Shown: positions 19,805 to 64,000, numbered from the stretch's first letter. The stretch: 64,000 bases of DNA from Blasia pusilla (GCA_050084515.1 CM114271.1:30132001-30196000); one strand, 5' to 3'. Notes: generated from the letters alone by a model not told the origin. Program-made: numbers and translations.

Positions 19805-20135
19805 TATTGCAATCATTTGGCCAACAAATTGAGTGAGGCTCTAGACAAAGGGCATATTCGTAGTTAATATTCTTACAGAAAGAATGTCATTATGGCTGCA
19901 TCATTCGGTGTAGGAGAGTCTTTTTATGGGGCTAAAGAAAGAAGCTTTGATGTATGAATGGCTAGGAGTGAGGCCTTAACACAAGCTTGAGATAGGTTGG
20001 ATGAGCCCGAGGTAGCAAGGAATCCTACGTTATCATGCATCCTTGGACATTATGTTTTCATGTGGTTCATTAAAGATAAGGATTTGAGAGTGGCAGATCT
20101 CTCTTAAGGAATGAGTATTGGGTTGGATGTTGTGT
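19805..20135 (+). mobile_element. Fragment of the same family spanning the PR-DNMT linker and an eroded DNMT motif I
   Basis: IIWP...MAASFGVGE...ARSEAL...EPEVARN...DLRVADLS*GMSIGLDVVL is collinear with ITWP...VAASFLGGE...AWSEPF...KPKIARS...DIHVLDLFGGIATGLVVI of copy B. Confidence 0.65.
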
Positions 20136-21249
20136 TAAGTTAACTTAACACAACTCATGTTGTGTTAAGTTACTCTAAAGCTATTGGTATGATGTTACAT
20201 ATTATCTCCTATGAGCACTATTGTGAGATATTTCATAGACTTCATATTATTGAACTATCTAGCTTGCAAATTTACACATTTGACGTACCAAATCTTCCCA
20301 AATCTAGTTGAATCCAAGTTTAATACATGTCAAAAACACCCTTCCCTAACCTTTGATCAGAAGGCTTAATTGTAGGAATATTAACCTAGCCTCACAAAAT
20401 CTCCCCTTGGGATAAACCCTTCTCGAGGCACTAAAGGCTCTAAGAAGGTGACACGTGCAGAGAAGTCATCTCCACCTTCTCAACATATTTTCAACTAATC
20501 AAACACCTCCAAAAAGGTCCCAAGAGATCTCCTAAGGGATTACAGATACACAAACGTCACTTAGAGAAGCCAACATGTCACTCTTAGTCTCTCCACGCCC
20601 AGGTAGACATATAGCCTCCCCATAGAGGCATACTATTTACTCTCGCTCAATTACAAATACTGTACTAACTATCACACACATTCACATGGATATGAAACAT
20701 AAATTAGTATCACATACATATAGACATGCACTTATATGACCAAAACATACCACAGATCACAAACACATCATATCCATAAATACACCATCACATAAAGAGG
20801 CCTTATAATCCCCTCCCCTCCTTCCCCCTCCCTTCCCCAAGGCACCCTAATCAGTGGTTGGGTGCCTCCAACCCAAAATTTTGAGTTGCCATATCGAAAG
20901 TAACATGCACCTTTTTGGTCCAAAGATTTTGAGGTTGGGTACTCACTTGCCCCATAGTTAGTTTCCCTTGAGCAATACATGTTAATCTCAATGAATATTA
21001 AGTATGCAAGACATACTCATCACCCTAGAGAAACTACATCCAAGAGTGGTGTCAAACATGTCATATACTAACTGAAAACCATCAACACACACTACTGTCG
21101 TAGGCACATACCCACTTGGGTTGCACACCTCCCACCATCAAATATCACCAATAAATCTTATATCGAACCTTACATTCACAACATAGAATGCCACAACAAC
21201 AAAACACAATTTCAAGACACGTGTAACCCCAATGTCTCATCTCCCTTCA

Positions 21250-23400
21250 CACCCATCAACTCTAACACTTTTGTCTTTGGTGGAAACATGGCCACCACTT
21301 GTATATCAATCTCCTAAACACTTATTAGATACTCCAACACATAAAAGGGTGAAAATATCATTTCCCTGTTATACCTCTATCACACTTCTCCATAAAGGCC
21401 TCACTCCAAGCCTGATGGATATACCACTCTACCCTAGGTTACAATAACTTATGGGGCCTATCATTCGCCCCCATCAACATATACTATTACGCCAATGGGT
21501 GCCACTGCACAACATAATCATCACCAACCAACACATCTTCCACCACTAGCTATCCCTCCCATATATCAACAAACTCATCCATCACTAAAGATCACGCTTC
21601 AACAATCACCACCACATCCTGTTGCACACCACTTATATTTCCAATCTTACATATTGGCAAATGACCAATATAGCAACAACCAAATTGTCAATCTAGCTAA
21701 GAGCTAACTAACTCCTCTTCAAAGTCTAACGTGAAGCTCGTGGGATACAACACAATACCACCAGCTAACACATCATGAAGCTCAATGTGAATCGACCACA
21801 ACCGCCTCAAGCCCTCACCATCAAACTATCCCTGAGGTGCTTTGGCTACACCCTCACCATCAACTTCTACCACATCATGAATTGTGGTGCAATAGACCCA
21901 CCAAGTATCTAGTGGATTTGAAATTAGCAGCTCTCTAACTAGGACTTCCATAGTCCTAATCCTAAGTCCACATTCCAACCAAACATTAAGGGTTGTGCTT
22001 TAGTCAATACAACACACTAAAGGGCCCAACCAGCAAATACACCTTATTGATGTTATCCTACATGAAAATATCAAGGGTAGCTAGTGCATGTTCAAATATT
22101 GGTCCCACGAGAAACTCCTCCATCTTCATGCCATGTGTCACTCAACTCCATTCACGTAGAGAGCTCCACACTCTTCTCCCAACAAGGAGACACCATTTCC
22201 ACTATAGCTACCACCACTCTCACACAACATGGTTGCCAATCAAAACATCTTTACTAGTTCTCCTCCCATAATCACCATATTTTGGTCCCAAAAAAAAGAT
22301 GTATGGCATATGGTCCTTTTTCCCCTTATAATGTACTAGATCAAAGCTCCTCATGGCCCTCGTACTTTTTGCCAATAAATGTGCCATGTACACCACAAGA
22401 TATACACATTTCCCCACAAAAACTGCACTCACTTGACTAATCCCATCAGTGAAGTCTCCACAATCTGTAACTACAAAAATTACTACAAAAATTGTGTCTA
22501 TCGATTGATCAACCTTACCTTGCTTTCAGTGTGAGTTCAAAGCAACACCATGCAACTTATAAATGTTGTCTGCACCACAAGTCATAATGGTGCTTGCTTA
22601 TGTTCATTTTCACATTACCACATACAAAATCCAAACTTGCAATCCTATCATCACCATCCATCATTGTTGTGGAATCATCGTTGCCCCTAGAAGTGCCTAA
22701 ATGATGAAGATCCAATAGGCCATGCACCCGTTGCTCCAAGGTAGCGATCATGGCACAAAGATCAGCACCTGATATAACCACCACCATCAACTCTAGTGAT
22801 TATGGGTCATCAACTACAACCAAACCCACCTCCATTATGGTTGCCATCGTGTCCTACAACATGATCCCTCCACCACCTAGCACGCCACTAGCTACCATTG
22901 ACGCAACAACTCACATCTCTAGGTGGATATTAGGAGATTGCTCATGGTTGTGACTTTGATATTAACAATGGATGCTACACCACACAAATCAGCATGTTTC
23001 CCCATCTTTCATGGGCCTCGACATAATCTGCTCACTCTACTCGCTCATTATAATCACATTGTGAGTGAGCCCCACCTCAAGTCCAACATGTGGTTTCCTC
23101 ATGCCAGCCTGTGAAAAATATTCCTTCCTTGCAAAGGAAGGAATATTTTTCACTCTTGGCAATGTATGTACATAGGCCATCCTGGTCCATCTCCAATCCC
23201 ATACTATCATACGATGCGTGGTTTGATGGTCATACCATTGTCGATATTATGCTATGAGTTGGCCCTCTTGCAAAGCATGACACTACCATTCACTCCAAAA
23301 TAGTGATAAGCTTGATATCCTTAAACACCCAAATTTAAACACATGGTCTAGATTCACTTGGCCTGTTAACACCATCAAAAGGAAATATCACAATTACGAT
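21250..23400 (-). mobile_element. Highly eroded gag/protease/linker remnant of the same Gypsy family
   Basis: On minus: AQPLMFG (about 21980-22000), KMEEFLVGPIFEHALA (compare RMAEMPARPAIERAMA) and IHQAWSEAFMEKCD (about 21385-21425; compare VQIAWSETFALKCD). Boundaries are approximate. Confidence 0.55.
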
Positions 23401-24129
23401 TTCCACTCCATATATACCATTATTACACCACGTATGCCTTGATCACTGTCCAATAGTCAAGTACTCCATACCAATACTATTTTTTTTATGCCTTAGCTAG
23501 TCCTTGTGTGACATGAACTAAGCCACTCATGTTTGTGTAGGTTTTTCATAGGCTCTCTTCTAACCACCAATGAAAATCTTGCAGCTCACCAAATATCTCA
23601 ATCCACGCCTCATTTTAGTTCTTCCCCAACAACTTCAAAGAACATGGGGAGAAACTTGTTGTGCCTTCTTAGAAATAGGGGAACCTTACCTTTGTGTTTC
23701 AGTTTTGATTGTGGCAATTCAAATGTATTTGGGCCTTATTTTAATGTAAGTCTCTGTTTTTCATATAAAGCATCATTCAATATTCACTATGCATTCTTTT
23801 AATGTAAATAGATAGTCCATCTGAGTGTGAATAGATACAGTTTGTAGCTTTGGGCAGGTGATCATACTTGGATGTTTATATTTGATCATCCAAGTATAAA
23901 CATCCAAGTACTACTTGGATGTGTATACTTGGATGTTATCTTTATATTTCAATAGACAAGCACTTTTGACGTGATTGTGAAGATTGGTCATATGCTACAA
24001 TAGATCAAGGTTAGTACAAAGATATTGTGCCTATATATATTTTCATATGATATTGGTAGCATTAGGATTGTAGTGATAGCATAATGACTTCTCCAAGTGA
24101 TGTAAGACGAGTTATGATAAGAGGGTATG

Positions 24130-24777
24130 TACTAGAAGGCAATCATGAAGTCCACCAGATGGTAGGAAGGAGTGATTTTTATTTAGTGGTAGTCATGGAT
24201 ACTCAATAGATTCTAAATGCCAATATAATGTACATAATTCAATCAACAATAAAGCAAACTTGTCATATATAAATGACACGCTATAGTTGACTATGTTACT
24301 TACAGATATCTTTTGCATACTATCTCAGTTATATGATAGGAGTGTAGTATGACATGGACAAGTCATTTTAATGACTTGCAATTATTCTTTTGTGACACAT
24401 GGAGTTATTTTGTATTACTCAAAGTAGTCATTATTATTTGAGTTATGACTTATAAAATGGCTATTCCAAATCACTCTTTAATTAGACGAGTCATAAAGAG
24501 TGACTCATCTAGTCATTCTTTATGACTTGTGTAGTCATTTTTTATAACTTCACCTAGTCATTAACAATGATTAGGTGAAGTAGTATTCAGTGACTACATT
24601 GCGTAAAAAAAAATGAGACTCAAATATGACTATAATCGGTTTGAGTAACAGTTTATACAACTAGGAGTAATTTTGATTACTATAGTATGGTTAAGTAATT
24701 ACATAGTTTCATAGTCTTGGTTTGAGCAGCATCCAGTCTTTTTTTCTAGTCATTCAAAGGGGGGTTTTGTAGTAGTA
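24130..24777. repeat. Dense array of short atgact/agtcat motifs ending in a CACTA-like terminus; possible DNA-transposon end
   Basis: Many agtcat/atgact motifs occur in both orientations. ggggttttgtagtagta at 24761-24777 resembles the reverse complement of a CACTAC(TAC)AAAA terminus, but imperfectly. Confidence 0.35.
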
Positions 24778-24989
24778 GAACATGGGGCTAAACTAAAGTA
24801 GCACATGCGTCCCTTTGAATATGTTAGCGCCCCTAGTATCATTCGCCTTAAAAGCTACAATAGAACTATCCTCAGCCTATGAGACATACTCATTTGGAAT
24901 TACCATGTAAAATATAGCAAGGGTCATATTATTTCCTTCACACTTGATCTCCGCCACATGCTGCTTTGCAAACTTAATAGAGTCACAGA

Positions 24990-25400
24990 TTGGTGCATCC
25001 TCTAGATGCTCAAATATAAAAATCCAAACCACAAATAGGATGAACGTAGAGCAAGGTTGCATATGGACAAATTCTGTGTGTATGGATATGTCCATGTCCA
25101 TGAACATACATCTGTCCTACATAAGGATTTTTCCATGTGGGCCCCATCCCCCCTTCTTTCTCATCCTCTCCCCCCCCCAAAACTTGTCTTCGTGATCTGC
25201 ACTTTCTCATTAATTTCTTCCTTCTCCCACCTTCACTCCCTCCCCCCCCCTTATTGCCCTGCTCACCCTTGCCCTTGCCTTGCCTTCCACCATGAACTAT
25301 AAGTATGGGCCCCATATTTTGTAATACATGTCCATGGATATATCCAAACTTCTTCAGCCATGTCCAGTTTTTTTGCAACCATATATGACGTAGAGGGACA
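24990..25400 (+). repeat. Dispersed non-coding repeat, copy 2
   Basis: Collinear with 17990-18420 (gcaaggtt.catatgga, gtccat.tccatg, cttcgtgatctgcactttctcatt, ccttccaccatgaactataagtatgggcccca). Confidence 0.8.
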
Positions 25401-28400
25401 ACGGATCCTCTTATGCACATACCAAGCATCAAACTCTAACATATAGTAAAGGAGCTCGATCATACTCAAGTATGGGTCTATGAGAGTTTATTATCCCTTC
25501 ATAGACGCATAGATCACATCTATGTCATCGCGTAACGCCATGGTGACACTGTCACTCTAGCACCAATTAGTACCCTCCCAACCCCCACTTAAGTCATGCT
25601 AAAAATTGAACTTTGTGGGGATGGTTGATAATGCAACCCACTTTGGGTAAGACCATCACTACTACTCATGTTACCACATCCCTAAAAACTCAAAAAAAAT
25701 CAAAAAATAAACACTCATTGCCTCATATATCACCACTAGAAGTACCACACACCATCCACACTCAAACTCAACCCCACATTGAACACCATATGTAGTGACA
25801 ACACATCACCCACTCATAACTTATCACCCATTGCTACCCTCAATAAGTACCTCTATGGCATGATGTTGTACACACACGAGCATAAAACTTATCAACTCAC
25901 ACTAAGTCCACACACATCCGAATCAAGATACACACATACAAATCCATCACTTAATTAAATCCTATTTAACCCATACACATTCCATCCTAGGATACAACAC
26001 ACACTTGTCAACCATCCAAATGACTCATATTGATCCTACACATATTTCATATTGGGATACAATACACATCTCGTACTCATACCTACCATGCATTCAAAAC
26101 TCATCCCTACACCACATGATACTCACAACCATATGTCATGTTGATTGGCATCATTACAACTCATCTAAACCAAACTCCTATACCGCACGACTCTAATTGC
26201 ACTATGTGAGCTATTCAAAACTCTTACACTTGAAATATGGACCACAAAATATAGGACAGCGCATATACGCATGAAACTCATATTGGAGGGCTAAATTTTA
26301 TACTCATGATCTTGATCACGTTATCCAATTTCACATCCATTTTTCTTCTTGGAGTTTGACCTCTATACCTCCTTGCTTCATCCTCAAGCACTCATGACCT
26401 TGAGCTTTGCAAGCACACATCTTGGTTTGAGTCTCAAAGACTTAATTGGTTGCACGTTTTGAAGGTAGCCAAAAAGCCGCCAAGGTTTAATCGGGTCGAG
26501 TCTCCCTAAGTCCAAACCGTCTTCCTAAGTCCAAACCGTCTTCCTAGGAATCCTATTCTTCAAGCCTTGAAAAATATTTCCAATTTTCTTGTCTACAAAA
26601 GAGCGCATTTGTTGTTTCCTCGAGGAGCGTCCTATGCGATGTCTTTGCTCAAAACTAAAACGAGGCCAAACACATATCATAGGTAGTCTCTTATTCATGG
26701 ACTTAAGCCAATAGGGAGGGAGAGTGTCCCCGATATAAGTAATTTTAGGATTCTCCATGGGAACCCCATTTTCCCCATTTTCCACCCCATGCCCTTTATT
26801 TTGGAACCTAAGCCAATCATGAATTATGATCGATTTGCGGACTCGTTCCTTCCTAATTATCCCCATAATTAATTAGAGGAGTTTTCATATAGATTCTATA
26901 ACTCTCACCTTGGAGCTTAGACCCATCTTTTTAATCTCATAGCTAGCGTTCGTCTCGACTCTCACTGGTTGGTGTCTCATGGTTGTCTTGTTGCTCATCG
27001 CATTTCGTGACTAGTATAATAACATCTTGTATGTCTTAACTACTCACGTGTTCCTTGCCACTCATCCTTGACTTTGAGCTTGTCTTAAGGGTATCATACC
27101 TTGATTGCATTGTCCATATCCATGGGAGTATGTATGTCCCTTTCTAGCTTAAGGCTATTCTTAAGGCACATATCTGTCTCGCTTGGCATTAGTCTCACGA
27201 CCGGTTCCACCAACATTCCTAGTCTCGCAACTAGCTAGTCTAAACTTTTTTATTTGATGGGCCACGCCAAGTTCTTTCCTCCTTAGACCAACGACCATGA
27301 TTTTTTTCCTGAGTCCTTGCTAACGTGAATGCCATAGACTTAGCTATTCTCAAGGCTTGGCACCCCTATTGTATCATCTCATCCGCATCACTCCCATCCA
27401 ACAAGAAGTTGGCCTCGATCAAAATTCAAAATTCTACAAAATGACAAAATCCCCCTTGAGATGTAATGTCCACTAAAACAACTCTCTACTTACACACTCA
27501 CTTTTCACAATATTCCAAACTAAACTTGAGTACCACTAACCCAATCATATCTCACTTACTAATTTCTACTAATTGACCTACACTCACTTATTCATTACAC
27601 GTTTGGAGATCTCACCACAACCAACATGTCAAAAGCCGCTTTGTGTTGTGAATGGCTTCTATCAAAAAGTACTACAATAATGTTTGCCTTAGTCCTAACT
27701 TCCATGCACATTCATCCTAAATTGACCCCTATCAAAGAGGCTTTCCTTACATGTGTGTACTTGTTCCTCACCATTCACACAATAGATGCATCATATTCAC
27801 TAATCATTGGCTAAAGGAGAAACCTTCTCTACACAATTTCTTCCCCCTACTTTGATACACTCATCTCCTTGTGAGACTACCCAAGTACTTGCACACACCA
27901 AGCAACAAGTACTCCGGAATATTGTTGCATGAACAACAACATATGGAACCAACTTCTCAATTCGGTTGCCCTTTGTTGGCAATATTCCACGCACTTCAAC
28001 ACTCTCCACACATATCCATATCTTGGTTGCCATGATAAGACATTTAGCAATTGGCACACATTTGCATGTAGGCATGAAGACTCTCCCACAAAAATTCTTT
28101 TGTATGCATGTTGGATATATGTTTATTTTCTTCCCACGCCAATGATTTACATAACCTAAATATGCAATATCCATTCCAATTCGTCAAAGGCACTATCGTA
28201 TGAATAATGCTTATGGTAATCCACTCTATTGCTTGAATGATTTTTGGTGTAAAGTAAATTGATGTTCACTCTCTTTGCTTTATAAAGAAAACTAGTAGAC
28301 TTCGGAAAGTTGAAGCACAAAGTTGACTCGGGAACTTTCACATGGCGCATGTCACCACTATGTTTGTATCGTGCTTCTACACTAACTTGCCCTCTCCATG

Positions 28401-48229: not shown

Positions 48230-48545
48230 AAGTGTCCCCTTCAAATATCTATGTACTCTCTTCAGTGCAATCCAATGTGTAAAGCTTGTGCAGGAACTTG
48301 CATAAGACCCTAACAACATAGGCTTTATCGGGCCTTGTGCTCACAAAAAAATAAATCAAACTACCTATAGCATTTTGGAAAGGAATTTTGGTAATGTCAA
48401 CTTTTCCTACATCTCCTTCTCTAGCTTGAGTCATATCTCCATTGATGTCCCAACAGACTTGTAATAGTTCAAGCCAAACTTGGAAATTACCTTCTTCACA
48501 AACATAGATTGATCCAAATTTAAACTTCCTCCGTCTCTACTTTTG
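48230..48545 (-). mobile_element. Ty1/Copia reverse transcriptase C-terminal remnant
   Basis: LNLDQSMFVKKVISKFGL...KSVGTSM, PFQNAIGSLIYFFVSTRPDKAYVV and HWIALKRVHRYLKGT are canonical Copia RT motifs. Confidence 0.85.
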
Positions 48546-50029
48546 GTAATCAAGATGACTAACTGCAATGCCATAGTGGCACCAGGAGATTGCCAGTATG
48601 GCATTGCAGTTTTCTGATATCGGGTTAGTGGCATCGACGCCATATGAAGCAGCCGGAGACATGGAGGATCCTGGTAGGATATACGGGGCTGCACAAATGG
48701 AGGCAACCGATGTTGTTACTAGTGGAGTAGCCGTAGAGTTGGATCCACACATAGGGGAGGCGAGGAAACATAGCAAGCTTCCTCAATCTTTTATCTTGTT
48801 CGAAGCGATGAGGACCCCATCAATGGGTCCTGATCAGAGTTCCCATATGGTTGATGTTGTTGGTGTGTAGGCACAGAGGGTTATGGGAGAAGCGAGTGCG
48901 AAAACTCATAGTGTTGATGCAAAGGTGGAGCCCGTGTCGATTACGTTGTTGGGGCGGCCACTACGATGTACCGCGCCCCATGGTCCTCTGTTTCTGATGT
49001 TACGTTGGGAGGTATGTCCGCCGAGGTTTTCTGACTGCCGCTACGTTATGTGAGCGTGGAGTTGGTGTTCCTGCGTCACGTTCTAAGGTGATTTCAGAGG
49101 AGATGATGGACTTGCCCGGCCTTGAGCCTATGCTCAAGCCGTTCACCTCAGTTTCATGGCAAGTTGCGGCTGCTAGGATGGTGGAGATGCTTGCTAGACC
49201 CGCTTTAGAGCATGCCATGGTTTCCCATGAGTTTTTTTGCTCGATAATCAAGGAGAGGTATTCTATTCGGTGAGTCCATCAGGTAGAGTTTTTTTCCCGC
49301 AACGCGTCTTGTTGGATTCAAGAGCTCAACCTCTAATGTTGGGGAAAGCGACGTTGATATGATTGGGCTTAATGAAGTCAGATATGGAGCGTTTTCCATT
49401 CAGGATACATATATCCTTGGATGGAGCAAGTACGACATAATTTATCACTCGATATAAGGTCGTGGTGAGGATTCGACATGTACATCCATTAGATAAGTCC
49501 GTGGTGCGAGTCAAGGCGATACATACCGATGCCGAGTGCTATGACATTTTTGTTGGAGGAAGAGTGTTATATTCGATGTTTTCCCTAGATTACTCGGAGG
49601 AGTCAGGATCCTACAGACCAGGGTGGTAGCTAGGTAATGGGCGACTTAGTTCGTTACTTGTTCGATTCACAGGTGGAGTGACTGAGCGACGGCCAAGAGA
49701 GATGGCGATATTAGGAGCATTCACCAACGGAATCACTTGGCCTAATGATTTGATTGAGGGGCATGTCCATGCAAGGGACACACTTGCACCTGACAATTCT
49801 ATGAAGAGGAGTGTTATGGTAGCCGCATCATTCCTCGGAGGGGAGGTACCGTTGTGGGGCTCAAGTGAGGATCTTTGATGCTCGGGCGATAAGCATGTGC
49901 AGACGGCATGGAGTGAGCCGTTTGCACCAGAGCGTGATGCGTCAAAGAAACCCAAAATAGCAAGAAGTGTTACGATGACTCCCTTAGACACCACACCCAT
50001 TGTGTGTGGCATCCCAAAGGAGGATATTC

Positions 50030-52270
50030 ATGTGTTGGATCTCTTTGGAGGGATCGCCACTGGGTTGGTTGTTATTTTCAAGCATGAGTGCTTGTGCAAT
50101 AGTTTCTATATGTTGACCTTAATGAGGTTGCAAGGCGAGTTTCACTACGATATGTGGTGCACTTTCGCCTCTGTCTCCCCGATTTATTGTCCGTATCCGC
50201 CGCACAAGGATACTAGAGTTCCCTACCAAGGGATAGTTTGTTGTTGGGGGCACAAGACATGAAGCGGGTAGGGACCATTGATTTGGTCATTGCAGGTTGA
50301 CCATGTTATGGCTAGACAAGTGCTCAACGAGGTAGCAAATTAGCTGACACTCCTTTTGGGAGATTATGAGGATCTTGCGACATTGGTAGGAGCACCACTC
50401 ATGTTCTCCGATTTACATCCTAGAGAATGTATCAATTTTGGGCAATTAGAGGTCATTGTGTCGTATAGTAAAATAATCCGCTATGTAAAATTTTGTGTTA
50501 TTAGTGTTAGAGAGAGTTTTATAAGTATTAAGTAGATTAGCTTAGGAAAATAATTTTTTCATGCTTAAACCTCTTTATGGTGCCTCATTTATGCGGGTCC
50601 AACTTTAGGAAAAAAAATTTAATAAATAAGATATGGGAATTTAAAAGTAAAGCGGTGGGTTGGTGTATTATTGAAAATAGAGATAAAGTAGTGTTTGTTG
50701 GTGGCTAGGGTAGTTGGGTAGTTTAGAGGATATAAAGTGCTTGGACAAGATAATATGATATCTACTTGTGTTAAAATGGGATTCAGCAAGCCTTGAGAAG
50801 AAGCCATTTAACACAAGATAAGATTAACCCTATTTTGTATTCTTGTGGATCCTTTTGAGTATATATAAAAGATGGATCTTCAAGGGTTCATCACTTTCAA
50901 CTTCATTTCTTGAGTTTCTCTTTTCACTCTTGAATGGATGACATTGGGTTTGCTTTCTCTTCCAATGAGAGTGGATTACCCTTCTTAGGAGAGTGACTTA
51001 ACCATGATCTATTCTTAGAGAGTTTTCAAGAGTCTGATGTGTGTTTAGATGGTTGTTTGGAAAGACTTGTCATTTTAGGGGAATTCTGGTAATCATAGGG
51101 ATATTGGATGGATTTCGGTTTGTTACTTTTCTAATGAGAGTGGATTACCCCTTTTGGGAGAACAACTCTACATGAATCCATTATTAAGAAGAAAAGAGGA
51201 TGTTTGTCAATCATGGATAGAGGTGAAGCACGAGTCATACTGGATTTTCCTTTTCTTAACCCATACCATGTGAAGGTTTTCTTCGTAGATAGGCATTGGT
51301 TTACTCGTTTTAGAGAGGCATTCATGAATCAGGTTATGCAATCACCAACTTTGGTGATGCTTGCTATTATCACGTATCGAAGGACTTGGGATTATACTTT
51401 ATATATCCTTGTATAAGGATCTAGGGATGTAAATAGGTATGCTAGAGTAGGGTTTAATATTCATTGTGCCAAGCGTAAGTAGTTTACATGGACTACATAG
51501 TTAGGAATTTTGTGGTTAAATGTTATGAAGAAGGGTTCGTCTCCGCACTATCTTGTGTACAAGCGTAAGTAGTTTACATGGACTTCATAGTTAGGAATTT
51601 TGGGATTAAATATTTTGAAGAAGAGATCGTCTCTGCATTATCATTCGTGATTCTTATCGTGAGAGAATTGAGAGTGCATATAGTGATCATGTACTGAATG
51701 GGAGAACTAATTAGAGAATTTACCTTGCATCAATGACCACCGCAAGCGAGACGTTCATCCTTACTCGAAGAAAATCTCTCGACACGATAATGGCTAGTGA
51801 CAAGTGCACATTAGGTGCGTGCCTAGATTGGCCCAACAATGATTTTGGATACGTGTAGTTTCACGAGCACATTGCTTACGTCTATGGTGGACCAACTTGA
51901 TGCCACACTAGGTGTTACAAAGAGCGTATGTGAGAGTGGAGCATCCCTCACATTTATTGATGGATTATGTTCTAGATTTGGGTCATCAATCATAGGCAGT
52001 GAGGTACAATGATCGATCGTCATTGATTGTGGTCAACAAGATTGGGATGTCGTTGGCAACCTTTCCCACTTTTGTGAGTTTTCATGCTTCCTATGTCTAC
52101 AAGGAAGCCAACTTGGCTTCGTTTGGGATGAACTGGCACAAAGGTTGATGGAGCCCAATACAAATGAGTGAGAGCGCGCGATGGGATTTTCCACAAAGTG
52201 ACAGCAGTACCATCACTATCAGAGGCTTCACGGCGTCGTGTTTTGGGTTAGGCAAAGGACCTAAACTACC
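50030..52270 (+). pseudogene. DNMT3-like methyltransferase domain of copy B, split by a solo-LTR-like insertion
   Basis: VLDLFGGIATGL (50032-50067), GTIDLVIAG*PC (PC 50301-50306) and YILENV (about 50414-50431) precede the insertion. LRLWWTNL (about 51876-51899), EPNTNE*ERAMGF (52152-52190) and RRVLG*AKDLN (52233-52266) follow it. Confidence 0.88.
50459..51784. mobile_element. About 1.3-kb AT-rich solo-LTR-like insertion with TGTCG...CGACA ends
   Basis: It interrupts the DNMT reading frame between motifs VI and VIII. Terminal 5-7 bp inverted repeats, a TATA-like tatatataaaa near 50860 and internal duplications (aatgagagtggattaccc x2; caagcgtaagtagtttacatggac x2). The TSD is not clean. Confidence 0.65.
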
Positions 52271-54833
52271 TAACTTGGATAATCATCTTAGGAATAGTTA
52301 AACAACGTCGAATGAGGTTGCAATAGGTCACAACTGCATGTTGCATTGCTGAGCCCCATGCCTACCAAGATGATTGAGGCAATGGCTAGGGGCAAGGTCC
52401 GAGGAGATCAATACACCAAGGATGATGAGAAGAGATACTCTTGGATTTCTAGGGATGTTTTGCAAGCTCTCCAAGAGATGATATTCATCACGTGGAAGGG
52501 ATGAGATTTTGGAGTTGGCTGCAAAGAGCATGAGCAACATCTAGATGAGTTATTTCAACGATTGCAGGAAAATGGCATGAAACTACATCTAGGCAAGTGC
52601 ATGTTCTACTACGACCAGATTAAGTACTTGGGTCATACAATATACCCAAATGGCCTTGGTGTTCAAGAGACAAAGATAGAGGCTATCTCATACATTCCAC
52701 GCCCTACAAATATGACTCAATTTTTTGCATCTATTTGGTTAGAAAAATTCAATCGATTGTACGTATATAAAGGGTTTTAGTTTGACTGCAAAACCACTAA
52801 CGTTTCTGACCAAGATGGATCACGTGAAACACTAGGGGGATGAGCATAGGAGAGCATTTGAGTTGCTCAAGGACAGGTTGACCTTCACGCCTATACTTGG
52901 GAGACCTATCAAGGTGCGTCCTTTCCAATTACATACAAATTAGAGTGTGTAGGGGCTTGGAGAAGTGTTCACCCAATATGATCATGAGGGTAGAGAGTTT
53001 GTGGTGGCCTACGCTAGTCACTCAAGAACCCTCGTATGAGCTATATTTTGTTGTTGAGGCAAAGTATAGCACATATGAGGCTAAGTGTTTGACTACAATG
53101 TGGGCTATTGCACATTTCAAGTGTTATTTATTCGGTAATACAGTTACCATGATTATTGATCTTCAACCATCTTAAGTGGTTCACAAGGAAGTTTGTGAGA
53201 TCACCTCTAATGTTGCAAGAATATGACTTTTAGGTAGTACATTGACGTAGGACGTTCAACCAAGATGCAGATTGTTTAAGTCGTAACCCATGCCCGAGTT
53301 AGCAAGATGCGACTAGAGCTTATTGGCATGGAGAGAGTGATGAAAAAATGGTGTCTAATTGCCTCACGTCAGTCTATTTGAGGTTGTTGGCTATGGAGCG
53401 CTAGAGTGGTGAGACTTTGATGGCGAGTTCTGATGGAGAGCCCTTAGATCCAAAGGTCGGTGAGGAGGTAATATGTGGCCAAGATATCCACAAGGATTTA
53501 GTCTTGGAGTACCTGCATACTAGCAACATCCTGAGCACAATAGGTACTAGAGAGCGGGGTTGGATTCTACAACAAGCCTGCCGATTTTGATGGGAGGGGA
53601 CGTATGTGTTACGAGTTTGGGAGGATGATAGAGTACGTATAGTGCTTCATCCTTCGTAGAGAGCACGTTTGGTGCAGCATGCCCACAAGGAGTTGGGTCA
53701 TTTTAGAGTGAAGCCGATGTACAACATGCTCCATATACACTATTGGTGGTAAAGCATACAGACTGATGTTCAACAGTTTGTTTTCCTGAGCCTAATGCAT
53801 GGTGTGGGATCCAGTTTGGACATCATTCAATGCTCCAACTCCACAATTGCATCCATGTTTGATCATGGGTTAAGGTTATAGATGGAGTTTCGATTTTGCA
53901 AGAATGTTATCTTTGATAGAGCGCCATAGTCGTTATGGTAATGGTCGAGCACTTCTTGAAGTGGATAGACTTGGTTGCATTGCTAGACAAAGCGAGTAAG
54001 GAAGTAGTGTATGCCTTCGTAGATCGAGTGTTGAGCCATTATGGCATAGCAACTAATGTGTTGACAAACCAGAGGAGAAAATTTCACGGGGAATTTCAGA
54101 CCTTATGTGATTAGGCACGCATTGACCATCACACTACTTTACAAGATCATCTTGAGACGAATGGATAAGCGGAGAGTGCGGGATATATTTCCATCTAGTA
54201 TACTCTCATTGGAGAGACAAAATGGAATGGTTTGGAAGGACCATGTGCATAACTGTGCACTATGTCATGTTCTTAGCATTGATGATATGATTGATCGGAG
54301 CTTAGTAGTAGTTCCAATAGGCTTCCGTTGTATGTTATGTGGGTATGCCTATGGTGTAGCTACTATGCTAGTTTTTTATGAGTATTTGAGAGGGTGACAC
54401 ATAGTATGTTTGAGGCTATCTCTTACTAGGATTCGTCCATAATGATGGATGTGTCCCAGATATACACATTATAGATACTAGGTAGTCATAGATCCACACT
54501 TGTGTTTGTGACACATGTCTTGCGCATACACATTGCTACACAAAATACATCGTTGTCACCAAACACACACACACATACACACAAACACGCACAATCCCAT
54601 GCTAACTCATGGCATCCAAACAATGAGACAAGAAGTACCAAAATATCTCCAATCGCCCCCCTAGCTTGTGGTTAGGTCCCTCTAACTCCAGATAGTCATA
54701 TATCCCTACCTATCATGACATACATCTCTCGGACGCTAAGAGCAAGAAGGTCGGGTGCTCATGTGGCCCCATCGTTAGTCGTCTTCTTGTCATCCATGTC
54801 ACAAACACAAGTTGGAATGTAGAACTACCTACT

Positions 54834-54985
54834 CTATGTACATCTAGGACACATCCATTGTTCTTGAGGAACCCTAGTGAGAGGTGGTATCAAGCATGCC
54901 ATATGCCATCCTCTCGAACATCCATCATAGACTAGCATAATGGCTGCACCACGACCAATACCACACAACATACATCGCAAGCCTG
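54834..54985 (-). other. PHD zinc finger at the integrase C-terminus of copy C
   Basis: CMLCGIGRGAAIMLVYDGCSRGWHMACLIPPLTRVPQEQWMCPRC is a C4HC3 PHD pattern with one C>Y substitution, followed by a stop. Confidence 0.9.
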
Positions 54986-57329
54986 TAGGAACTATTGCTA
55001 AGCTTGAATCAATTGTATTTTCAATGTTCGGAAGGTGACACGGCACACAGTTACGCACATGGTCCTTCCAAACCATATCATCACGTTCCTCCAATAAGAG
55101 AACACCTTATGGCAAAACCTCATGCACTCTCAAGATGGTGCGCCTTGCAATCACATCCAACGTCGTGGATGCCGTCTGTTGCAAGTAGACATAGTCTTCC
55201 TAATGAAACCTCCAGATAGTAGATCGATAACCATCCCCCCCTCCCCGCGAATAGTCGCATACCTCAATGAATCTCGATGTTGCGTAATCGCCAAGTTCTC
55301 AAACGCCATGGGCATCACTCTCCCAAACAATTCATCCCTCTGAGAACATGCTTGCATCCTTTCATGAGGGTCATCAAGGTTCAACACCTCACCAATATCT
55401 CGACGAATGGCCGCAAGTAAATCTGGTTCTCGGCCATACAAAAGCAAGCACAGTGAGAAAGACACGAAGGATGCTTGTCTGCAGAATTTGTATCCCATCG
55501 CCAACCACGAAAATAAGAGGTCCCAATCTCCTTGGTGACCTTTCTACAAGCCATACTTGCGTTGTCCTCTCTTCACTGTCTATACAACCCACTCTGCTAG
55601 TCCATCCACCTCAGGATGATTTCGCAAAGTAGTGCAGTGGTGGATCAGTGCCTGATCACACAAGGCTTGAAACTCCCCTTAGCACTCTGTACCCTGGTCT
55701 ATCAACACCTTAGCTGGTGCACTGTAATGACTTAGCACTCGATCTAGGAAGACATACGCTACTCCCTCACTCGCTTTGTCAGGAAATGCAAACCAACTCT
55801 ATCCACTTTGAGAAGTGCTCGACCATCACCAACACATACTGACTATGGCGCTCCATCAAAGGCAAAGGTCCTGTAAATTCCAAACTCCATCTTTAACTTA
55901 AACCCATGATCAGTGGATGCAACTGTGGAGTCGGAGCATTGAACGATGCTCGGACTCGATCACACATCATGCATTTAGCAATAAATTGTTGAACGTCAGT
56001 CTGCATGCCTCGGCTCCAATACTAAATCTAGAGCAAGATGCACGTCCGCTTCACTCCAAAATGGCCCAACTCCTCGTGGGCATGACGCACCAAACGTGCT
56101 CTATACAAAGGATGAGGCACTACACACACTCTACCATCCTCGTACACTCGCAACACATGTGTGCCCTCCCACCGAAACCGTTTGGCTCGCTGTAGGATCC
56201 GATCGCGCTCTCTAGAGCCCACTATGCTCGCAACGCTGCCAATACGCAGGTACTCCAAGACCACTCCATCATTCTGAATGTCTCGGCCATCTGTCGTCTC
56301 CTCACCGACTTCTAGATCTAAGGACTCTCCATGGGATCTCTCCAACGAAGTCTTAGAAATCTTGCTCTCCATAGCCAACAAACCCAAATAGGCTGACGCA
56401 TGCCATCCTGGCACCAACTCCTCATCACTCTCACCATGCCAATGAGCTCCAGTCGCATCTCGCTGATTCGGATCTGGGTTACGACTCAAACCATTAGACT
56501 CTCCATCAAACCTCGCCATCGAAGTCTCAAAAATCTAACTCTCCATAGCTAACAAGCCCAAATAGGCTCGCCAAATAGGTTGACACATGCCATCCTAGCA
56601 CCAACTCCTCATCACTTTGTCTGCCGATTGATAAGTCGGTAATCTCCATACATATGCCTATCAATCTAGTTGCCATGCACATCTTTCTTGGCGGGTATGA
56701 CACTGGAAAATGCATATTCTCCATGCGACATCTCTACTAGTCCTCCGAAAACCAAGTCTTGGCTCCTACTCCGAATTAGAGCCCTCTCCATGTCACTATA
56801 CCTATAGGGTTGACGAAAGATTGTCGTGTCATTCGACAACTCAATGCGGATGTCTGGCCCCTTGAGCGTACCCAAATCCTGCATACTAAATGCAAAACAG
56901 CTCCTATAACTCCTAAGGAAGTGGTGTATCCGACATTGCTCTTCTCTTGTTAACTAAGGGCCCATATTTGGCTCCCAAGTCTCCATAATGACTACGGTAG
57001 GACTCTCCGGCGTGGATGTCGGTGGTTGCTATGGTGCAACCCCGTGTCGGACAACAAAACTCGAGTACTCCCCTACAACCAATTGCAAAATCGGATCTCC
57101 ATGTGCAGTCCCCGAAACCACGCTCGATGCTGTGGCTACCATCTCCTAGCGTACCTGCAAAACATCCCAAGAAGTCCAAGGGGTTCTCTCCCGATCACCC
57201 CTAGTGTGTCGATAGCTCGGGTCTCGCCCCGAGCCACTGCCTCAACCGTCTAGGTAGGCATTGGGCTCACCAACACAAATTTTGTGATCTGTCGATGTTG
57301 GTCAGCTACTCCTAAGCTGAAAATCCATG

Positions 57330-58260
57330 TGAAGCACTTTAGGTCCATCACCTAACCTAGGACATGACGTCGTGGTGGCTCTGAGAGCGACAGTACTGCT
57401 GTCACTCTTGTGGAAAATCCCATCGCTCGCACTTGCTCATCGGCGTTGGGCTCCAGCAACCTCTAAACCTGGTCATCCCAAACCAAGCCAGGTCAGGCCT
57501 CCTTGAATGCATAGGAAGCAGGAAAACTCACCAATGTGGGAAAGGTTGCTTATGGCGTGCCAATGATATTGACTATAATCAACGGCGGTCCATCATCGTG
57601 CGCGACTCCCTGTGATCGATAGCCTAGATCCAATATAGAATCCACTGACAAATCGGAAGGACACTCCTCTCTTGCACAAGCCCTCCGCAACACCTCATGT
57701 GGTACCAAGTTGGTCCACCAAAGACGCGGGCGATATGCTTTAGAACCTACTCGCACGGTATCTAACAACATTGTGGGGTCGATCCATGGGAGCACTCGAT
57801 GTGCACTCATCACCACGCGGGACCTCGAATCGCCCAAAATTGGCACATGCTCCAAAATGTATGCTAGAGAACAAGGCTAATGCTCCTGTAAATGTCGCAA
57901 GATCCACATCATCTCCCAAAACAACCTAGATCGAGTGTCAACTTACCCGCTACCTTGTCTAACACTCGATTGGCCCTGACACCGCCAACTAGCAATGACC
58001 AAGTCTATGGTCCCTATCCGCTCCAAGTCTTGCACCCCCAACAATGAAATATCTCTAGGTAGGGAACTTTGGTAACCGTGAATGGCGGACGCATACTACA
58101 AGTACGGAAAACGGAGCCGTAATTTCACCACATGGTGAAGTCAAGCGTGCCTCACAACATCATCATTCTTCACATATAGATATTGCTACACATGCACTCT
58201 AGCATGCAAAACAGTAGCTAATCCATTGCAAATCTCTCCAAAGAGATCCAACACCCGAAT
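57330..58260 (-). pseudogene. DNMT3-like methyltransferase domain of copy C (contiguous, with stops and frameshifts)
   Basis: IRVLDLFGEICNGL (I), GTIDLVIASWRCQG (IV; Cys at 57979-57981), LFWEMMWIL, YILEHVP (VI), PTMLLDTVRVGSKAYRPRLWWTNL (VII/VIII), EPNADEQVRAMGF (IX), RRHVLG*VMDL (X). Confidence 0.9.
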
Positions 58261-61227
58261 ACCCTCCTATGGGATGCTCCACAGAGTCGGCATTTTGCCG
58301 ATTCTTGGGCTGTTGCCTAAGATAATCTACGTGTCTCCGGGATGGTGTCCAAAGGGGTCATAGCAACACTCTTGCCTACTTGGGATTCCTCTGAACTGTC
58401 ACACTTTAGTGCAAACGTCTCGCTCCACGCAATCTGCACATGCTCAATGGCTAAGCGTCGAAGCTCCTCAATCAAGCCCCAAAGCGGCACCTCTCCTCCA
58501 CAGACTAATGCGGCTACCATGACACCCCTCTCCATAGAAATGTCAGGAATGGGAGTATCCTCTGCATGAATATGACCCTCAATCAAATCACTAGGCCAAG
58601 TGATGGCACTGCTAAATGCTGCTAAGATCGCCATCTCTCTTGGTCGTCGCTCGATCACTACACTTGTGAATCGAACGAGAATTAAGCTAAGGCGTCCATC
58701 ACATGACTGCCATCATAGTCTGTAGGATGCTAATTCCTCCTAGTAATCCAAGGAAAACCCCATCGGGTATAACACTGCTCCACCAACCAAGACGTCGTAG
58801 GACTCTTCATCAGTCATTATCGCCTTGGCTCGCACCACGGACTCATCTGTAGGATGTCCCGGGAAAATCCTCACCACGACCTCCTGTCGGGTGATATACT
58901 ATGTGATACTCCCTCCATCCAAGGAAGTTTGTATCCGAAATGGACAACACTCCACATCGGCTCTCGTCAAGCCCAATCCTTTGAACGACGCTTTTCCCAA
59001 CATCAAGGGTTGCGCTCGTGAATCCAACAAGACGCCCTGGGGACTAAAAGCTCTACCTCTTGGACTTACCAACTGGAAGACCTCTCCCCGGTTATCCAGC
59101 AAACCAACACCATGAGAAGCCATGGCACGCTCTATTGCGGGTCTAGCGGGCATCTCTGCCATCCTAGCAGCCGCAGCCTGCCATGAATCAGACGTGGATG
59201 GCCCGAGCATCAGCTCCAAGGGTAGGTCCATCACCTCTGAACGTGATGCAAGAACTCCAACTCCACGCTCACATAGCGTAGCGGCCAACCGAAAAACCTT
59301 GGCGGACGTACCTTCCAACGTCATAACATCGGAAGGAGAAAATAAAAGAGCGCGGTATACAACGGTGGCCGCCCCCAACAACGTGCTCGACACATGCCCC
59401 TCTTGAGCATCAACAATAGGAGTCGTCGCACTCGCTTCTCCCATCGCCCTCCGTGCCTGCGTACCAACTCTCGAGGAACTATGATCAAGACCCATTGACG
59501 GGGTCCTCATCGCCTCAAACAACGTGAAAGATTGAGGAAGCGTGGCCTATTTCCTGTCTTCCCCTCGCTGTGGATCCAACTCCATGCGTCACAACTTTGG
59601 CGGCCTCCATCTGGGCAACCACGCACATCCAATGAGGATCCTCCATATCTTGGCTGCTCCATATGGTGTCGATGCCACGGATCTGGCATCAAGTAACCTG
59701 AATGCCATAGCGCTAATCTGCTCATGAAGCTATTGTATTTGAGTAGCCATCCCAACCTCACGCCTGACGTCTCTCTTGACGCGTCTAGGTGGTAGGACTC
59801 TTCTTCCTCCACGGGAAACTCTACCACCCTATCGGGAAACTCCAACTCCTCGTCCCCCAATGGGACCATCTGGTGCACGATCTCTAGGCCCACCCCGACC
59901 GGCTACTCGCTCTGGTGCGCCCTTTCACCCTCGGTCCGGACGTAACTAAAGATGTAAACTTAAACATATGGCGCGTGTGTGACCATACCTCTGACAATAG
60001 TCATACTGATAACCTCCTGGTGCAGCACCATCTCCTCCGCCATGCTGAGGCACACTTCCATGACCCTGACGAGTGCAATCGTGTTGATGATGGGCTCCAC
60101 CACATGACCAACAAGTTATCATAGGCGGCTATTGCTGAGCCGCATATGAAGGCGCAGGTCTCTGTGGCACGGCCTCCCGATATCCTCCCTAAGCTCGTGG
60201 TGCCGCAGTCAACCTATCTCGGAGTCCACGTTGCTGCACACATGGTGCAGTCAATCGTGACTGCTCTCGCCCATAACCCATGGTGGCTACGCTCTCCTCC
60301 GCCATGTTGCGCTCACTGTTCTCGCGGTCCTAAAAACATTTCTTAATGTAGGGGAGGTGTTTATAAGAAGCACCCCCTCCGGTACCCGAGTCTGCAGGGT
60401 CCGGTCCAACATTATGTACCATGATTGGATAGCTTGAGCCTCTCTCACTACTTGAGTGACGTTGATCAATCGGCGCAAGCAAGTGTAACCCTCGCGCAAA
60501 CTCTCACCTAGGCGCCTCTGTAAGTTGTGGATGCTCCGCAACTTCTCCGTTCGTACCCCCTGATAGCTCGCCCTCAACTCAGCAAAGAACTCAACCACGG
60601 GGTTGAACCTAGGACCAACCCAACTGGACAATGCAATTGCTCCAATGTGAATTATCCCTCCTAAAACATCTGTGGTGGAAGAGGAAGAAGCCTCTCCTCA
60701 CTCCTCCTCCTCATCTAGGAACGGCTATGTCCATGAGAGATAGTGTAGGTCATAGTAGAATCGCCATGCCTCAATCTCTTGGGCATATCTATGGGAGAAC
60801 TCGAGGTAATCTTCCATGGGTGCCCCATCTAAATGCTAGAACATATTGTTCCATGTTGTAAACAGGTTGAACTCTCTAGAGTTCCTAACCCGTTGTGAGT
60901 CGCGCCAACTCCTAAACTCCAAGATGAAGTCGTGCAACTGTATTGTGCCTACAACACTTGAGAACCTACGTGGTTCTCTCCCTCGGTTATCCATCTCATA
61001 CGCCTAAGCAGTAGGACTACTCAATGTGAGTGGCAAAGCACTACTCAACTTCTCTATGCCCTCCTCCTCGTACGAAAATGACATAGAAGGAGGTCGAGGT
61101 GGTCCCTCACGTGGAGACCCTTGAAACCTCGCACAACTCCGGATAAACCCTCCAGAGCTACTCTTAGGTCCACTATCTCACCTCTCAAAATCCCGAAAGG
61201 ACGCTGTGATGGCCCTCATGCCCCTTG

Positions 61228-62214
61228 TGTCGCGCCCCTACTCTCCTTGAACGTCAATCTTTAGTGTTGCGGAAGCGTACGTTTAGTAGGTCACAATCTC
61301 ATCGCCAATCTACACCCAAACACACACTCTCGTTAGTCAGGTTTGGGCCAACCAACGTTCCAACCACCAAGTTCTCAACTCGGCGTCTCATCAAGCTCAA
61401 CCTTTCTTAGTTCCCGGTTTCCAAAACATGGCAAGTCCTTCAAGACTTGGTTAGACTTTCTGGGATCCTAAACGGCACTTGCGCGCCTAGCGATCCGAAT
61501 TGTTCAACGGACCTCGTGTGAGTTCCAAACTGAGACCCAAGTAATTGAGTCGCGGGGTGAAATACAAGAGGGATGTCTAAAATCGCCTCAAAAGACTAGG
61601 TGCAGGTTTTCCAACCCAACTCCCAAACTCGCGTTCCGTTCCATGTCCTTGAGCCGCCCCGCGGCGCCCGAAGTGGGGTTTGGGTTCCAAGCACTCTCGA
61701 AGACCTTCCCCATTACTAGTACTTCTGGGGTTCTCCAATAAACCCCCCTTGGAAAAGGAGGGTCGGGCCCTTCATTGTGGCCCTCAACCCGACTCCACTT
61801 ACAGTTGTTTCCGGGTTGTTTCTCAGCCGCTGCTTATGCGTTTGCAAAGATCTTTAGTGCGTTTGAACCGACTTTCCATAAGCCTTCCAACGCACCCTTG
61901 TTTAATCCAAACGCATCTTGGCGCTAAAAGTTATGGTGAAAAATACAGTCGGAAACTCTCAAACGCTAGTGGCGTTCCAAATCCGGATTCTTCCTTTTGG
62001 CAACCCACTTTCTAGACTCGACTTCTTTCAAGTCTCCTTTCGCGCTTGGTCCAGGTTTCTCGGTCGTGACCACAACATCTGAAACGCGAAGCCTTGCTCG
62101 CGTCTCGTCTCTTGTCTCCTTCGAGGCTACTCCAACGCGCAAACCATCTTAGCGTGAGCCCGCTAATGTTCCGATGTTCCGCTTGGCACTCGTTTGGTCA
62201 TGAGGTTCGCGACA
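61228..62214. mobile_element. Solo LTR 1 (987 bp), TGTCG...CGACA, TSD CCTTG
   Basis: ccttg|TGTCGcgcc ... ttcgCGACA|ccttg gives a perfect 5-bp TSD at 61223-61227 and 62215-62219. Confidence 0.92.
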
Positions 62215-62306
62215 CCTTGTGCCCCTCTCATACGATCAATCTCAATCTCGTGAGTAATCCCTCAATCACTCAAACTAAACATGCAGCACTCAATCTACAT
62301 ACTCTC

Positions 62307-63190
62307 TGTCGCAACCCTCATAACCAAACAACACCAAATAGGCGCCAAGCGAAACATCAGAACTCAAAGGAACTCACGCTGCAAGGTTTGCGCTTTGGAG
62401 AGGCATTTGGAAGAGTCTCTTGGAAAAGTCTAAGAGACGAAACACGGAACAGAGTTCTGCGTTTCATGCGTTAGTGGTCGCGACCATGAAACCTAGACCA
62501 AACGCGAGCCAAGACTTGAGATGAGTTGAGTCTTGGGAGGTTGGTTGCCAAAGATGTGAGAACCAGTTTGGAACACGACTAGCGTTTGGGAGAATCTGAC
62601 TGTGTTTAGGACCATAACATTGAGCTCCGAGATGCGTTCGGGACAAGTAAGAGCGCGTTGGAAAGCTGATTGTGATACGCTTCCAAGGCATCAAGTACAA
62701 GTTGAGATATTGGCCAAAAATAGTTGAGAGAGCAATCGGATCGAGGGCCAATTGGAGAGGCACGGGATGGAACAGGAGTTTGGCGCGGGAACCCGAAACC
62801 CAAACCTGATCCAAGGGAGTGGGCTTTATACGCCACACTTGGATTCCAACCCGAGATTCACTTCGTGCGAGTCTTGGTGAGGAACTAATTGGATGTCCAT
62901 CGGATAGTTGGAACTGCTAGGTGCGAAACGCCGTTTCAGGTTCCTGAACGGACCAGAAAGTCTGTCCCAAGTCTTTCGAGATTTACCCGTGTTGGAAACT
63001 GCGAAACTAGGAAGGTTGAGCTTTATGACAGTCCAAGACGAGAACTCGGAAAGTTATCCAGCTGATTGATCCAAGACCCGACTAACCGAAGTGCGTGTTT
63101 GGATGCAGATCAGCATTGAGAGCGTGACCTCCTGAATGCACGCTTCCGCAACAAACAAGATTAACGTTCAAGGAGAGTAGGCGCACGACA
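62307..63190. mobile_element. Solo LTR 2 (884 bp), same family in opposite orientation, TGTCG...CGACA, TSD CTCTC
   Basis: ctctc|TGTCGcaac ... gcaCGACA|ctctc. Its reverse complement aligns with LTR 1 at both ends and in the translated overlap (e.g. cctactctccttgaacgt.aatctt..tgttgcggaagcgt). Confidence 0.92.
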
Positions 63191-64000
63191 CTCTCATTGA
63201 GACGTGTGTTGTGCGGCAACAAGCAGCGTGATGCGGAAAATCAACTGATCTATTGTCTCATCGACAAACCATCCTCAACTTTGGACATCCCACACAGGTC
63301 TATGTCCCCTAAACCCATACATCATCGATGCTCTCAACATCAACACGAAACCCAATATCCCAAATAACTTCCCAATACCCATAAATCCCTCACACGTGTA
63401 GGGTAAGAGACCATAATGGGTAACTTGACAATAATGTTGATGTCTCTCCTCGATAACTAAAAATCTCGACCCCAACTCAGTCATGAAGACAACTCCTCCA
63501 ATCAGTAAATCATAATCCTCTCGTACTGACGCTGCTCAAACCTCCTCGATGTGCGGTGAAGGTCCAGTGGTCCAGTGCGCCACGGAACGGCTATAAATGG
63601 CATGGCATTCGGTGGCATACCCTCTTCAATCAACAATTCATACGCTCTGCTCCTTAGTGAAGGAGCGGCTCCGCGATCAAGACGATGCGGTACGGCCACG
63701 AGCGGCATGGCCTGGCAATCAGCGGCGTGTTGCAGCTACATGGTGCTTCTGAGAGCACCTGTATGGGGCAACCTGTTCCCATACTCAATCCCTATCAAAA
63801 ATCGGGCAGCGCTTCCGTGCGCCACTCTTCCACACAAAAAATCGGCAAAGGAAACATCACAAGTAAGTCGCTCTTGCTCCGTTGAGCACTCCCATGAATC
63901 ACTAAACGGGGAATATGATCCCGAACCAGCGAGTGACGAGCGAGCTCCCCCATGAAGCTCTCTCACTCATTCATTCTCTCTTTGTAAATCAAGATCCAAT

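Follow-up and report, generated by a model that had tools for sequence, protein, structure and literature searches.

A decayed DNMT3-type methyltransferase domain in the Pol region of dead Ty3/Gypsy retrotransposon copies in Blasia pusilla

Gypsy retrotransposons that carry a DNMT3 domain (Gypsy-DNMT3) were first described in 2018 in Klebsormidium nitens (de Mendoza et al., PMC5890265). According to the sections of that paper on these elements, KnitGypsy-Dnmt3 has the domain make-up of a Gypsy element, its Pol ORF includes a Dnmt3-type domain that is not rearranged, its A-coding-B-A-B repeats are DIRS-like, and its intact copies have conserved catalytic residues. The acquisition is placed there "in the K. 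nitens lineage". The same sections describe SymbioDIRS-Dnmt3 of Symbiodinium, which has a DIRS backbone with a tyrosine recombinase, a Dnmt3-type domain in Pol and the A-coding-B-A-B repeats, called typical of DIRS elements; SymbioDIRS-Dnmt3 methylated CG in yeast. Both elements bear out what the first-pass annotation of our sequence had stated about DNMT retrotransposons in Klebsormidium and dinoflagellates. A 2025 paper and a 2026 preprint cite, in the passages concerned, DNMT3-bearing retrotransposons "in streptophytes". In the literature searched we found no liverwort or moss element and no Marchantia gene that is named, although supplements may list some. It is puzzling that a retrotransposon should bear an enzyme of the very type used by hosts to silence transposons.

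Here, we analyse a window of 64 kb from Blasia pusilla, i.e., the whole stretch of DNA that was studied (64,000 nucleotides), to which all positions refer. It contains four copies of an element, named A, B, C and D. To map the window, we used the protein P0160 from Marchantia and P0239 (2358 aa), a full-length ORF from a metagenome. The stretch at the center of this study, in copy C, is most probably a decayed DNMT domain in one of four dead Ty3/Gypsy copies from the streptophyte Gypsy-DNMT3 lineage that was first described in K. nitens. Copy C contains the following features:

59133-60979, minus strand: gag region, aligning with Marchantia P0160 from residue 9
58746-59132, minus strand: aspartic protease (PR) region, in which DSRA replaces DSGA
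58264-58745, minus strand: linker of about 160 codons between PR and DNMT
57304-58263, minus strand: DNMT3-like C5 methyltransferase domain, contained in one frame that has 9-10 stops
56618-57016, minus strand: N-terminal part of the reverse transcriptase (RT), found by tblastn
55244-56507, minus strand: integrase (IN), with the H2C2 zinc domain (E 3e-11) and the core
54840-54974, minus strand: intact PHD finger that closes Pol at the C-terminus (27.7 bits with PF00628)
54514-54796, minus strand: 3' untranslated part, with a polypurine-tract motif and a B-repeat-like stretch

Along the minus strand, the tblastn order is PR (59132-58746), DNMT (58263-57304) and the RT N-terminus (57016-56618). 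The gag translation contains a CCHC-like knuckle, recognised by eye. The remainder of RT and the RNase H, corresponding to residues of about 1460-1800 in P0239, are deleted.

The methyltransferase motifs I, IV, VI, VIII, IX and X of copy C follow each other in a single frame (57300-58299, minus strand), which has 10 stop codons over this span and no frameshift. In order they read IRVLDLFGE (I), IASWRCQG (IV), LFWEM, ILEHV (VI), AYRPRLWWTNL (VIII), ERAMGF and RRHVLG. Two losses are seen, as the proline of PC is replaced by arginine (RC) and the asparagine of ENV is gone (EHV). When copy C was searched by phmmer in a set of 1.84 billion representative proteins, 952 matches reached E<=1e-3; of these, 477 reached E<=1e-10 and 79 reached E<=1e-30 (best E 3.8e-67). 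This excludes a chance likeness.

The features of the other three copies are as follows:

48554-54513, plus strand: copy B, truncated at the 5' end, 72% DNA identity to copy C
49225-50106, plus strand: PR, linker and start of the DNMT in copy B, in one tblastn segment
50064-50455 and 51852-52317, plus strand: DNMT of copy B, in two pieces
52526-53169, plus strand: C-terminus of RT and RNase H in copy B
53180-54174, plus strand: IN of copy B
54173-54454, plus strand: PHD region of copy B
1249-2361, plus strand: DNMT domain of copy A, with at least three frame breaks and several stops
87-1068, minus strand: gag and PR pieces of copy A (P0160 residues 435-488 and 612-763)
19263-25523, minus strand: copy D, the fourth copy, which is degenerate and retains gag, PR and the IN C-terminus/PHD region

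Copy B is without the 5' part of gag and the N-terminal half of RT, and its DNMT is interrupted by about 1.34 kb (50456-51796) that have no counterpart in copy C. This extra stretch is AT-rich and its translation contains an internal duplication. When copies B and C are taken together, PR, RT, RNase H, Integrase_H2C2 and the integrase core are found in that order, with the DNMT added after PR. This is the Pol order of Ty3/Gypsy elements with a DDE integrase. The first-pass annotation had placed the domain after PR and its linker and before RT in both copies, in agreement with the tblastn order PR-linker-DNMT-RT. It had also deduced an inversion in copy A, and the PR piece (1068-613) indeed lies on the strand opposite to the DNMT of this copy. 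Nothing of RT was found downstream of the copy A DNMT, which keeps both the PC and the ENV motif (RWPCQG, ILENV).

In copies A, B and C alike, motif I comes ahead of IV, VI, VIII, IX and X, so the annotation was right that the methyltransferase motifs occur in order in three copies (1249-2361, 50064-52317 and 57304-58263). The search with PF00145 that it proposed gives a divided answer for single copies. The central piece of copy A (1503-1847) scores 27 bits (E 3.7e-6), above the cut-off; copy C narrowly misses the cut-off of 22 bits (20.7 bits, E 3.1e-4); and neither DNMT piece of copy B has a Pfam match at E<=0.1, although both align with copy C and its relatives by tblastn. A fourth motif-I fragment, claimed near 20080-20130, was not recovered. 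Here, tblastn with copy C finds nothing, a family HMM gives nothing significant over 17500-26000, and the sole trace is one marginal tblastn match (E 0.076) between a Sphagnum protein and the plus strand at 19919-20191. This region falls within copy D, where no DNMT, RT or RNase H is detectable. Around copy D there are two direct repeats (18057-18331 and 25051-25348), similar at 77% and separated by about 7 kb, which could be terminal repeats of this copy or belong to another element.

Every copy in the window carries stops, deletions or rearrangements. All four are dead, as had been stated for the copies seen in the first pass. CpG depletion was considered as a mark of the copies and rejected: the observed/expected ratio is 0.51-0.73 in the copies, close to the 0.59 of the whole window and therefore not distinctive.

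The termini are better seen in relatives, of which 23 longer loci were checked for repeats. Direct repeats about 8.7 kb apart (A pairs) are present in three of these (L003, L048 and L058). A second pair (B) of roughly 115 bp, with a spacing of 453-455 bases, is present in five (L048, L058, L013, L057 and L032). L048 and L058 resolve as A1-coding-B1-A2-B2, with a polypurine tract immediately before B1 and a palindrome at the junction of B1 and A2. Their ends read TGTCATG...CACGACA, and target duplications of 4 bp (AAGG and CATA, respectively) flank the whole element. The paired identical long terminal repeats that had been expected were thus not found in these loci, which carry the A-coding-B-A-B arrangement instead. 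Close relatives of the window copies integrate as an A-coding-B-A-B unit with 4-bp target duplications. The DDE integrase and the 4-bp duplications set this family apart from SymbioDIRS-Dnmt3.

In the window itself the terminal repeats are incomplete, the copy ends being truncated or rearranged, and only the polypurine motif of copy C and a B-like stretch were found. The 30-base polypurine-region motif (54654-54683) is exactly conserved, and its 25-base core is exact in L013, L048 and L057. The junction between copies B and C (54470-54840 region) sits where the A repeat of the relatives should begin. The two copies stand tail to tail; their likeness stops at GTGACA / TGTCAC, and the 283 bases between them all belong to the 3' end of copy C. 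As a conjecture only, the pair could have arisen by fold-back or recombination at a short inverted repeat (TGTCAC/GTGACA microhomology).

In L048, 16-17 bases right after A1 (2017-2033; compare 10516-10532), i.e., in the place of a primer-binding site, are complementary to the inside of A. Self-priming was considered and is not claimed, the complement being only 9 exact bases in L058 and L003 and 8 in the window repeat.

All 16 PDB sequence matches of copy C are DNMT3A or DNMT3B. A family profile built from 25 members scores highest with DNMT3A (81 bits), DNMT3C (73) and DNMT3B (71), followed by the DRM chains (53-63), M.HhaI (36) and DNMT2 (21), while DNMT1 is absent among its 57 PDB matches. 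The AlphaFold model of the Calypogeia relative P0157, made with 58 aligned natural sequences, has a block-mean pLDDT of 87-98 over residues of about 301-640 and is poor over the PR and linker part. Among the matches listed, Foldseek returns DNMT3A/B/C throughout for this model (best E 6.7e-18), with a TM-score of 0.76-0.84 for targets that are catalytic-domain chains and of 0.40-0.55 for longer chains. The animal DNMT3A, DNMT3B and DNMT3C catalytic domains are therefore the top matches in both sequence and fold, and they have the motif order I-IV-VI-VIII-IX-X in common with the window domain. They differ from it in that the identity is about 22-24%, that the window domain sits in a retrotransposon polyprotein, and that PWWP and ADD are undetected: in the family proteins Pfam finds only PF00145, retroelement domains and, in relatives, the C-terminal PHD.

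Plant DRM is the second-best PDB family for the profile. The motif order of DRM is circularly permuted, as stated in the pertinent part of PMC5890265, while that of the window domain is not, so the domain is not DRM-like. Judged from sequence and predicted fold, it is a DNMT3-type, non-permuted C5 cytosine methyltransferase, as the first-pass annotation had proposed.

Among 58 members of the clade, conservation is 90% or more at the PCQ, ENV and RxR positions, and intact relatives keep the catalytic residues. In metagenomes, 64 loci were returned, and 2 of the 35 examined have an open frame across the whole domain; most of the metagenome-locus copies are thus fossils too. The proposed dN/dS check was carried out among 24 loci of relatives and gives a median of 0.59 (interquartile range 0.50-0.71; 248 of 276 pairs with usable dS, the pairs being non-independent). 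Between copy C and the 24 loci, dN is 0.34-0.54 and dS is saturated or not computable. These values fit purifying selection on the active lineage, followed by neutral decay.

For the PHD finger at the end of Pol in copy C, the top PDB match is the PHD1 finger of KDM5A (E 7.1e-12), and further top matches are KDM5B PHD1, CHD4, PHF21A, ATXR5 and AIRE. These fingers read histone H3 unmethylated at lysine 4. A comparable design is found in chromoviruses, Gypsy elements with a chromodomain after the integrase. They likewise fuse a histone-tail reader to the integrase C-terminus, whereas the family of the window has a PHD finger instead of the chromodomain. In the main text of PMC5890265, no occurrence of "PHD" was found.

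A mechanism can be tentatively suggested for active members. The domain might methylate the new DNA of the element itself, or the surroundings of the insertion site, de novo with S-adenosylmethionine, which follows ideas in the relevant part of the 2018 discussion (PMC5890265). The PHD finger might tether the integrase to nucleosomes with H3 unmethylated at lysine 4, and insertion would be steered into silent chromatin. That both parts operate jointly is a real possibility, if short of an even chance. The window copies are capable of none of this.

Alternatively, the domain would not methylate DNA in this lineage at all, and would act on RNA or serve as a non-catalytic DNA- or chromatin-binding module of Pol. 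According to the corresponding sections of PMC5890265, the Klebsormidium Gypsy-DNMT3 domain gave no de novo methylation in yeast, and RNA methylation is raised there as an option for a LINE-borne DNMT. However, human DNMT3B failed in the same yeast assay, which is why its authors call the result inconclusive. In addition, the Cys-Gln-Gly, the glutamate of ENV and the arginine and histidine of AHRxR lie at or above the same 90% level of conservation in the 58 clade members, and the fold and the top matches are those of the DNA-acting DNMT3A/B/C. We therefore regard the absence of DNA methylation in the lineage as unlikely.

The nearest named relatives of copy C are bryophyte proteins, and close homologues from Marchantia, Calypogeia and Sphagnum are already deposited, unnamed:

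Calypogeia fissa: P0157, 56% identity to copy C
Marchantia polymorpha: Mp_4g09160 (P0160) and four MARPO_ models, 53% identity to copy C (for P0160)
Sphagnum: P0169 and P0189, 35% and 42% identity to copy C

Deeper members of the clade are K. nitens GAQ93235.1 (P0141) and two Closterium proteins. The K. nitens protein has the Pfam order CCHC-PR-DNMT, and it is not necessarily a published copy of KnitGypsy-Dnmt3. By local profile searches, 245 fetched proteins were sorted into architecture classes:

DNMT before RT or RNase H: 14 proteins
PR directly before DNMT: 30 proteins
DNMT after RT or RNase H: 97 proteins
DNMT-IN(-PHD): 18 proteins
DNMT alone: 85 proteins
no DNMT: 1 protein

A FastTree tree of 211 rows, from which 36 of the 244 DNMT-bearing proteins are omitted for their short match, contains a single change of domain order when only the strict classes are counted, with 97 rows on one side and 17, among them the window, on the other. 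Adding the uncertain classes (42 and 115 rows) raises the number to three changes, with P0241 and P0139 as outliers. An IQ-TREE tree was made from 75 rows, namely 61 of the 67 clade rows (two long branches and four near-duplicates were dropped) and 14 picked rows of the RT-RH-DNMT-IN type. It splits the two architectures at an SH-aLRT of 100, with the K. nitens protein on the side of the window copies (61 rows). Here the three window copies are together (85) and sister (84) to the named bryophyte proteins (93), and the window and bryophyte groups are nested in sets supported at 95, 99 and 97.

The phylogeny that the first-pass annotation had asked for is thus obtained in part: the window copies do group with K. 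nitens GAQ93235.1, but the tree contains no host DNMT3 or DRM. The profile searches for such outgroups returned element-borne proteins only, so both trees are without an outside root and cannot separate one capture from several.

The second architecture, RT-RH-DNMT-IN-PHD, is seen in numerous Gypsy ORFs (e.g. P0010, P0023 and P0200), many of them from metagenomes, of which no description was found in the literature searched. It accounts for the 97 of 245 proteins that were strictly classed as such, and the named hosts are all chlorophytes. The named, strictly classed chlorophyte proteins (from Scenedesmus, Monoraphidium and Haematococcus) are of the RT-RH-DNMT-IN type in 4/4 cases. In these elements the DNMT, about 28-36% identical to copy C, lies between RNase H and integrase, and the IN-PHD tail is 33-41% identical; they stand on the other side of the SH-aLRT 100 split.

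The family of the window could also have taken up its DNMT independently of the Klebsormidium elements, the likeness being convergent. The lack of an outside root leaves room for this, and the position of the DNMT elsewhere in Pol in elements of the chlorophyte type shows that such a module is able to relocate or to be acquired repeatedly. Against this, the CCHC-PR-DNMT order is common to the K. nitens protein, which joins the 61-row clade, and the unusual A-coding-B-A-B repeats described in PMC5890265 occur in relatives of the window as well. An independent uptake is therefore very unlikely.

With common descent as the preferred reading, the likeness to KnitGypsy-Dnmt3 as described in those sections comprises the Gypsy make-up, the unrearranged Dnmt3 domain in Pol, the catalytic residues kept in intact copies and, in relatives of the window (L048 and L058), the A-coding-B-A-B repeats. 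The differences are that the host of KnitGypsy-Dnmt3 is a charophyte alga, while the nearest named relatives of the window are from liverworts and mosses, and that the window copies are dead.

The position of the domain within Pol is clearest in uninterrupted ORFs of relatives from public assemblies, which have the DNMT between PR and RT and are 1875-2358 residues long. The single ORF P0239 has the Pfam order PR663-DNMT953-RT1443-RH1660-IN1925-PHD2300. The single ORFs P0017, P0244 and P0168 have CCHC-PR-DNMT-RT-RH, with IN too in P0017 and P0244, and in the Marchantia protein P0163 the DNMT continues directly into RT. Window copies B and C are collinear with P0239, P0017, P0244 and P0168. The methyltransferase is thus built into Pol between the protease and the reverse transcriptase, and the integrase follows with the PHD finger at the end. 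This upholds the claim in the first-pass annotation that the domain is part of the polyprotein and not nested. That the DNMT is instead a separate piece inside the Gypsy copies, be it a pseudogene from a host DNMT3 or a mobile element nested there, is extremely improbable, since, although the extra 1.34 kb in copy B and a nested element in L041 reveal that nesting does occur in this region, the DNMT has the same place in copies B and C, in the long ORFs and in the 14 DNMT-before-RT proteins, PR, linker and DNMT start share one tblastn segment in copy B, and the target duplications of L048 and L058 flank the whole element and not the DNMT domain.

In L041, a pair of 786-bp direct repeats (1398-2183 and 8444-9228) encloses an RT/IN element on the opposite strand, nested in the DNMT. 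This insert is a case of true nesting, unlike the DNMT domain itself.

Taken together, a broader picture can be proposed, which we favour by a small degree. Gypsy-DNMT3 would be an old green-plant clade of retrotransposons, with PR-DNMT-RT in streptophytes (Klebsormidium, Closterium, liverworts and mosses) and RT-RH-DNMT-IN in chlorophytes. It would have a PHD finger of the unmethylated-H3K4-reader type on the integrase, insert as an A-coding-B-A-B unit by means of a DDE integrase, and persist in land plants, with related copies still transcribed. Should the lineage indeed extend from charophyte algae to liverworts and mosses, the view of 2018 that the capture was lineage-specific has to be broadened.

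The annotation had raised that this architecture might be undescribed in land-plant genomes. This holds to the extent that no described land-plant member was found in the literature searched; on the other hand the kind had been published from Klebsormidium, and bryophyte homologues had been deposited. The kind is thus already known. The new aspects are its bryophyte members, a clade-specific order of domains, the PHD finger, and target duplications that flank the A-coding-B-A-B unit. The deposited Marchantia proteins include an ORF that spans gag, protease and methyltransferase. As Marchantia is genetically tractable, the roles of the DNMT and of the integrase PHD finger would be directly testable there.

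Three RNA runs and one DNA run were aligned to 48400-62400. RNA depth stays between 0 and about 1 in the DNMT, RT and IN portions of B and C. It reaches 7-12, first mates being on the plus strand, in the bin 54471-54937, where the polypurine region lies; the DNA depth of this bin is about 245 when both columns are summed, compared with a baseline of a few. Many reads in this bin continue into sequence that differs from the window, and their source is other copies with the polypurine motif. Transcription of related copies is only weakly indicated by these data, because most of the reads are only 95-99% alike and fit partially, and nothing follows from them for the window copies.

Two further observations concern the surroundings of the copies. 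A 987-bp repeat at 61228-62214 (minus strand) has the ends TGTCGCG...CGCGACA and CAAGG on both flanks, and has the appearance of a solo LTR whose target duplication is 5 bp long. Another copy of this repeat (62307-63191, plus strand) lies head-to-head with it, 92 bases away. Summed over both columns, the DNA depth there is about 40-150, the baseline being a few, and many reads break off at 61228, 62214 and 62307. Finally, the ORF at 6616-7395 (plus strand, 260 codons) is the only long open frame in the window that resembles a host gene. The ESM Atlas gives as its look-alikes the N-terminal domains of subunits from vesicle-tethering complexes (Vps54, Sec8 and COG), which is a weak lead.
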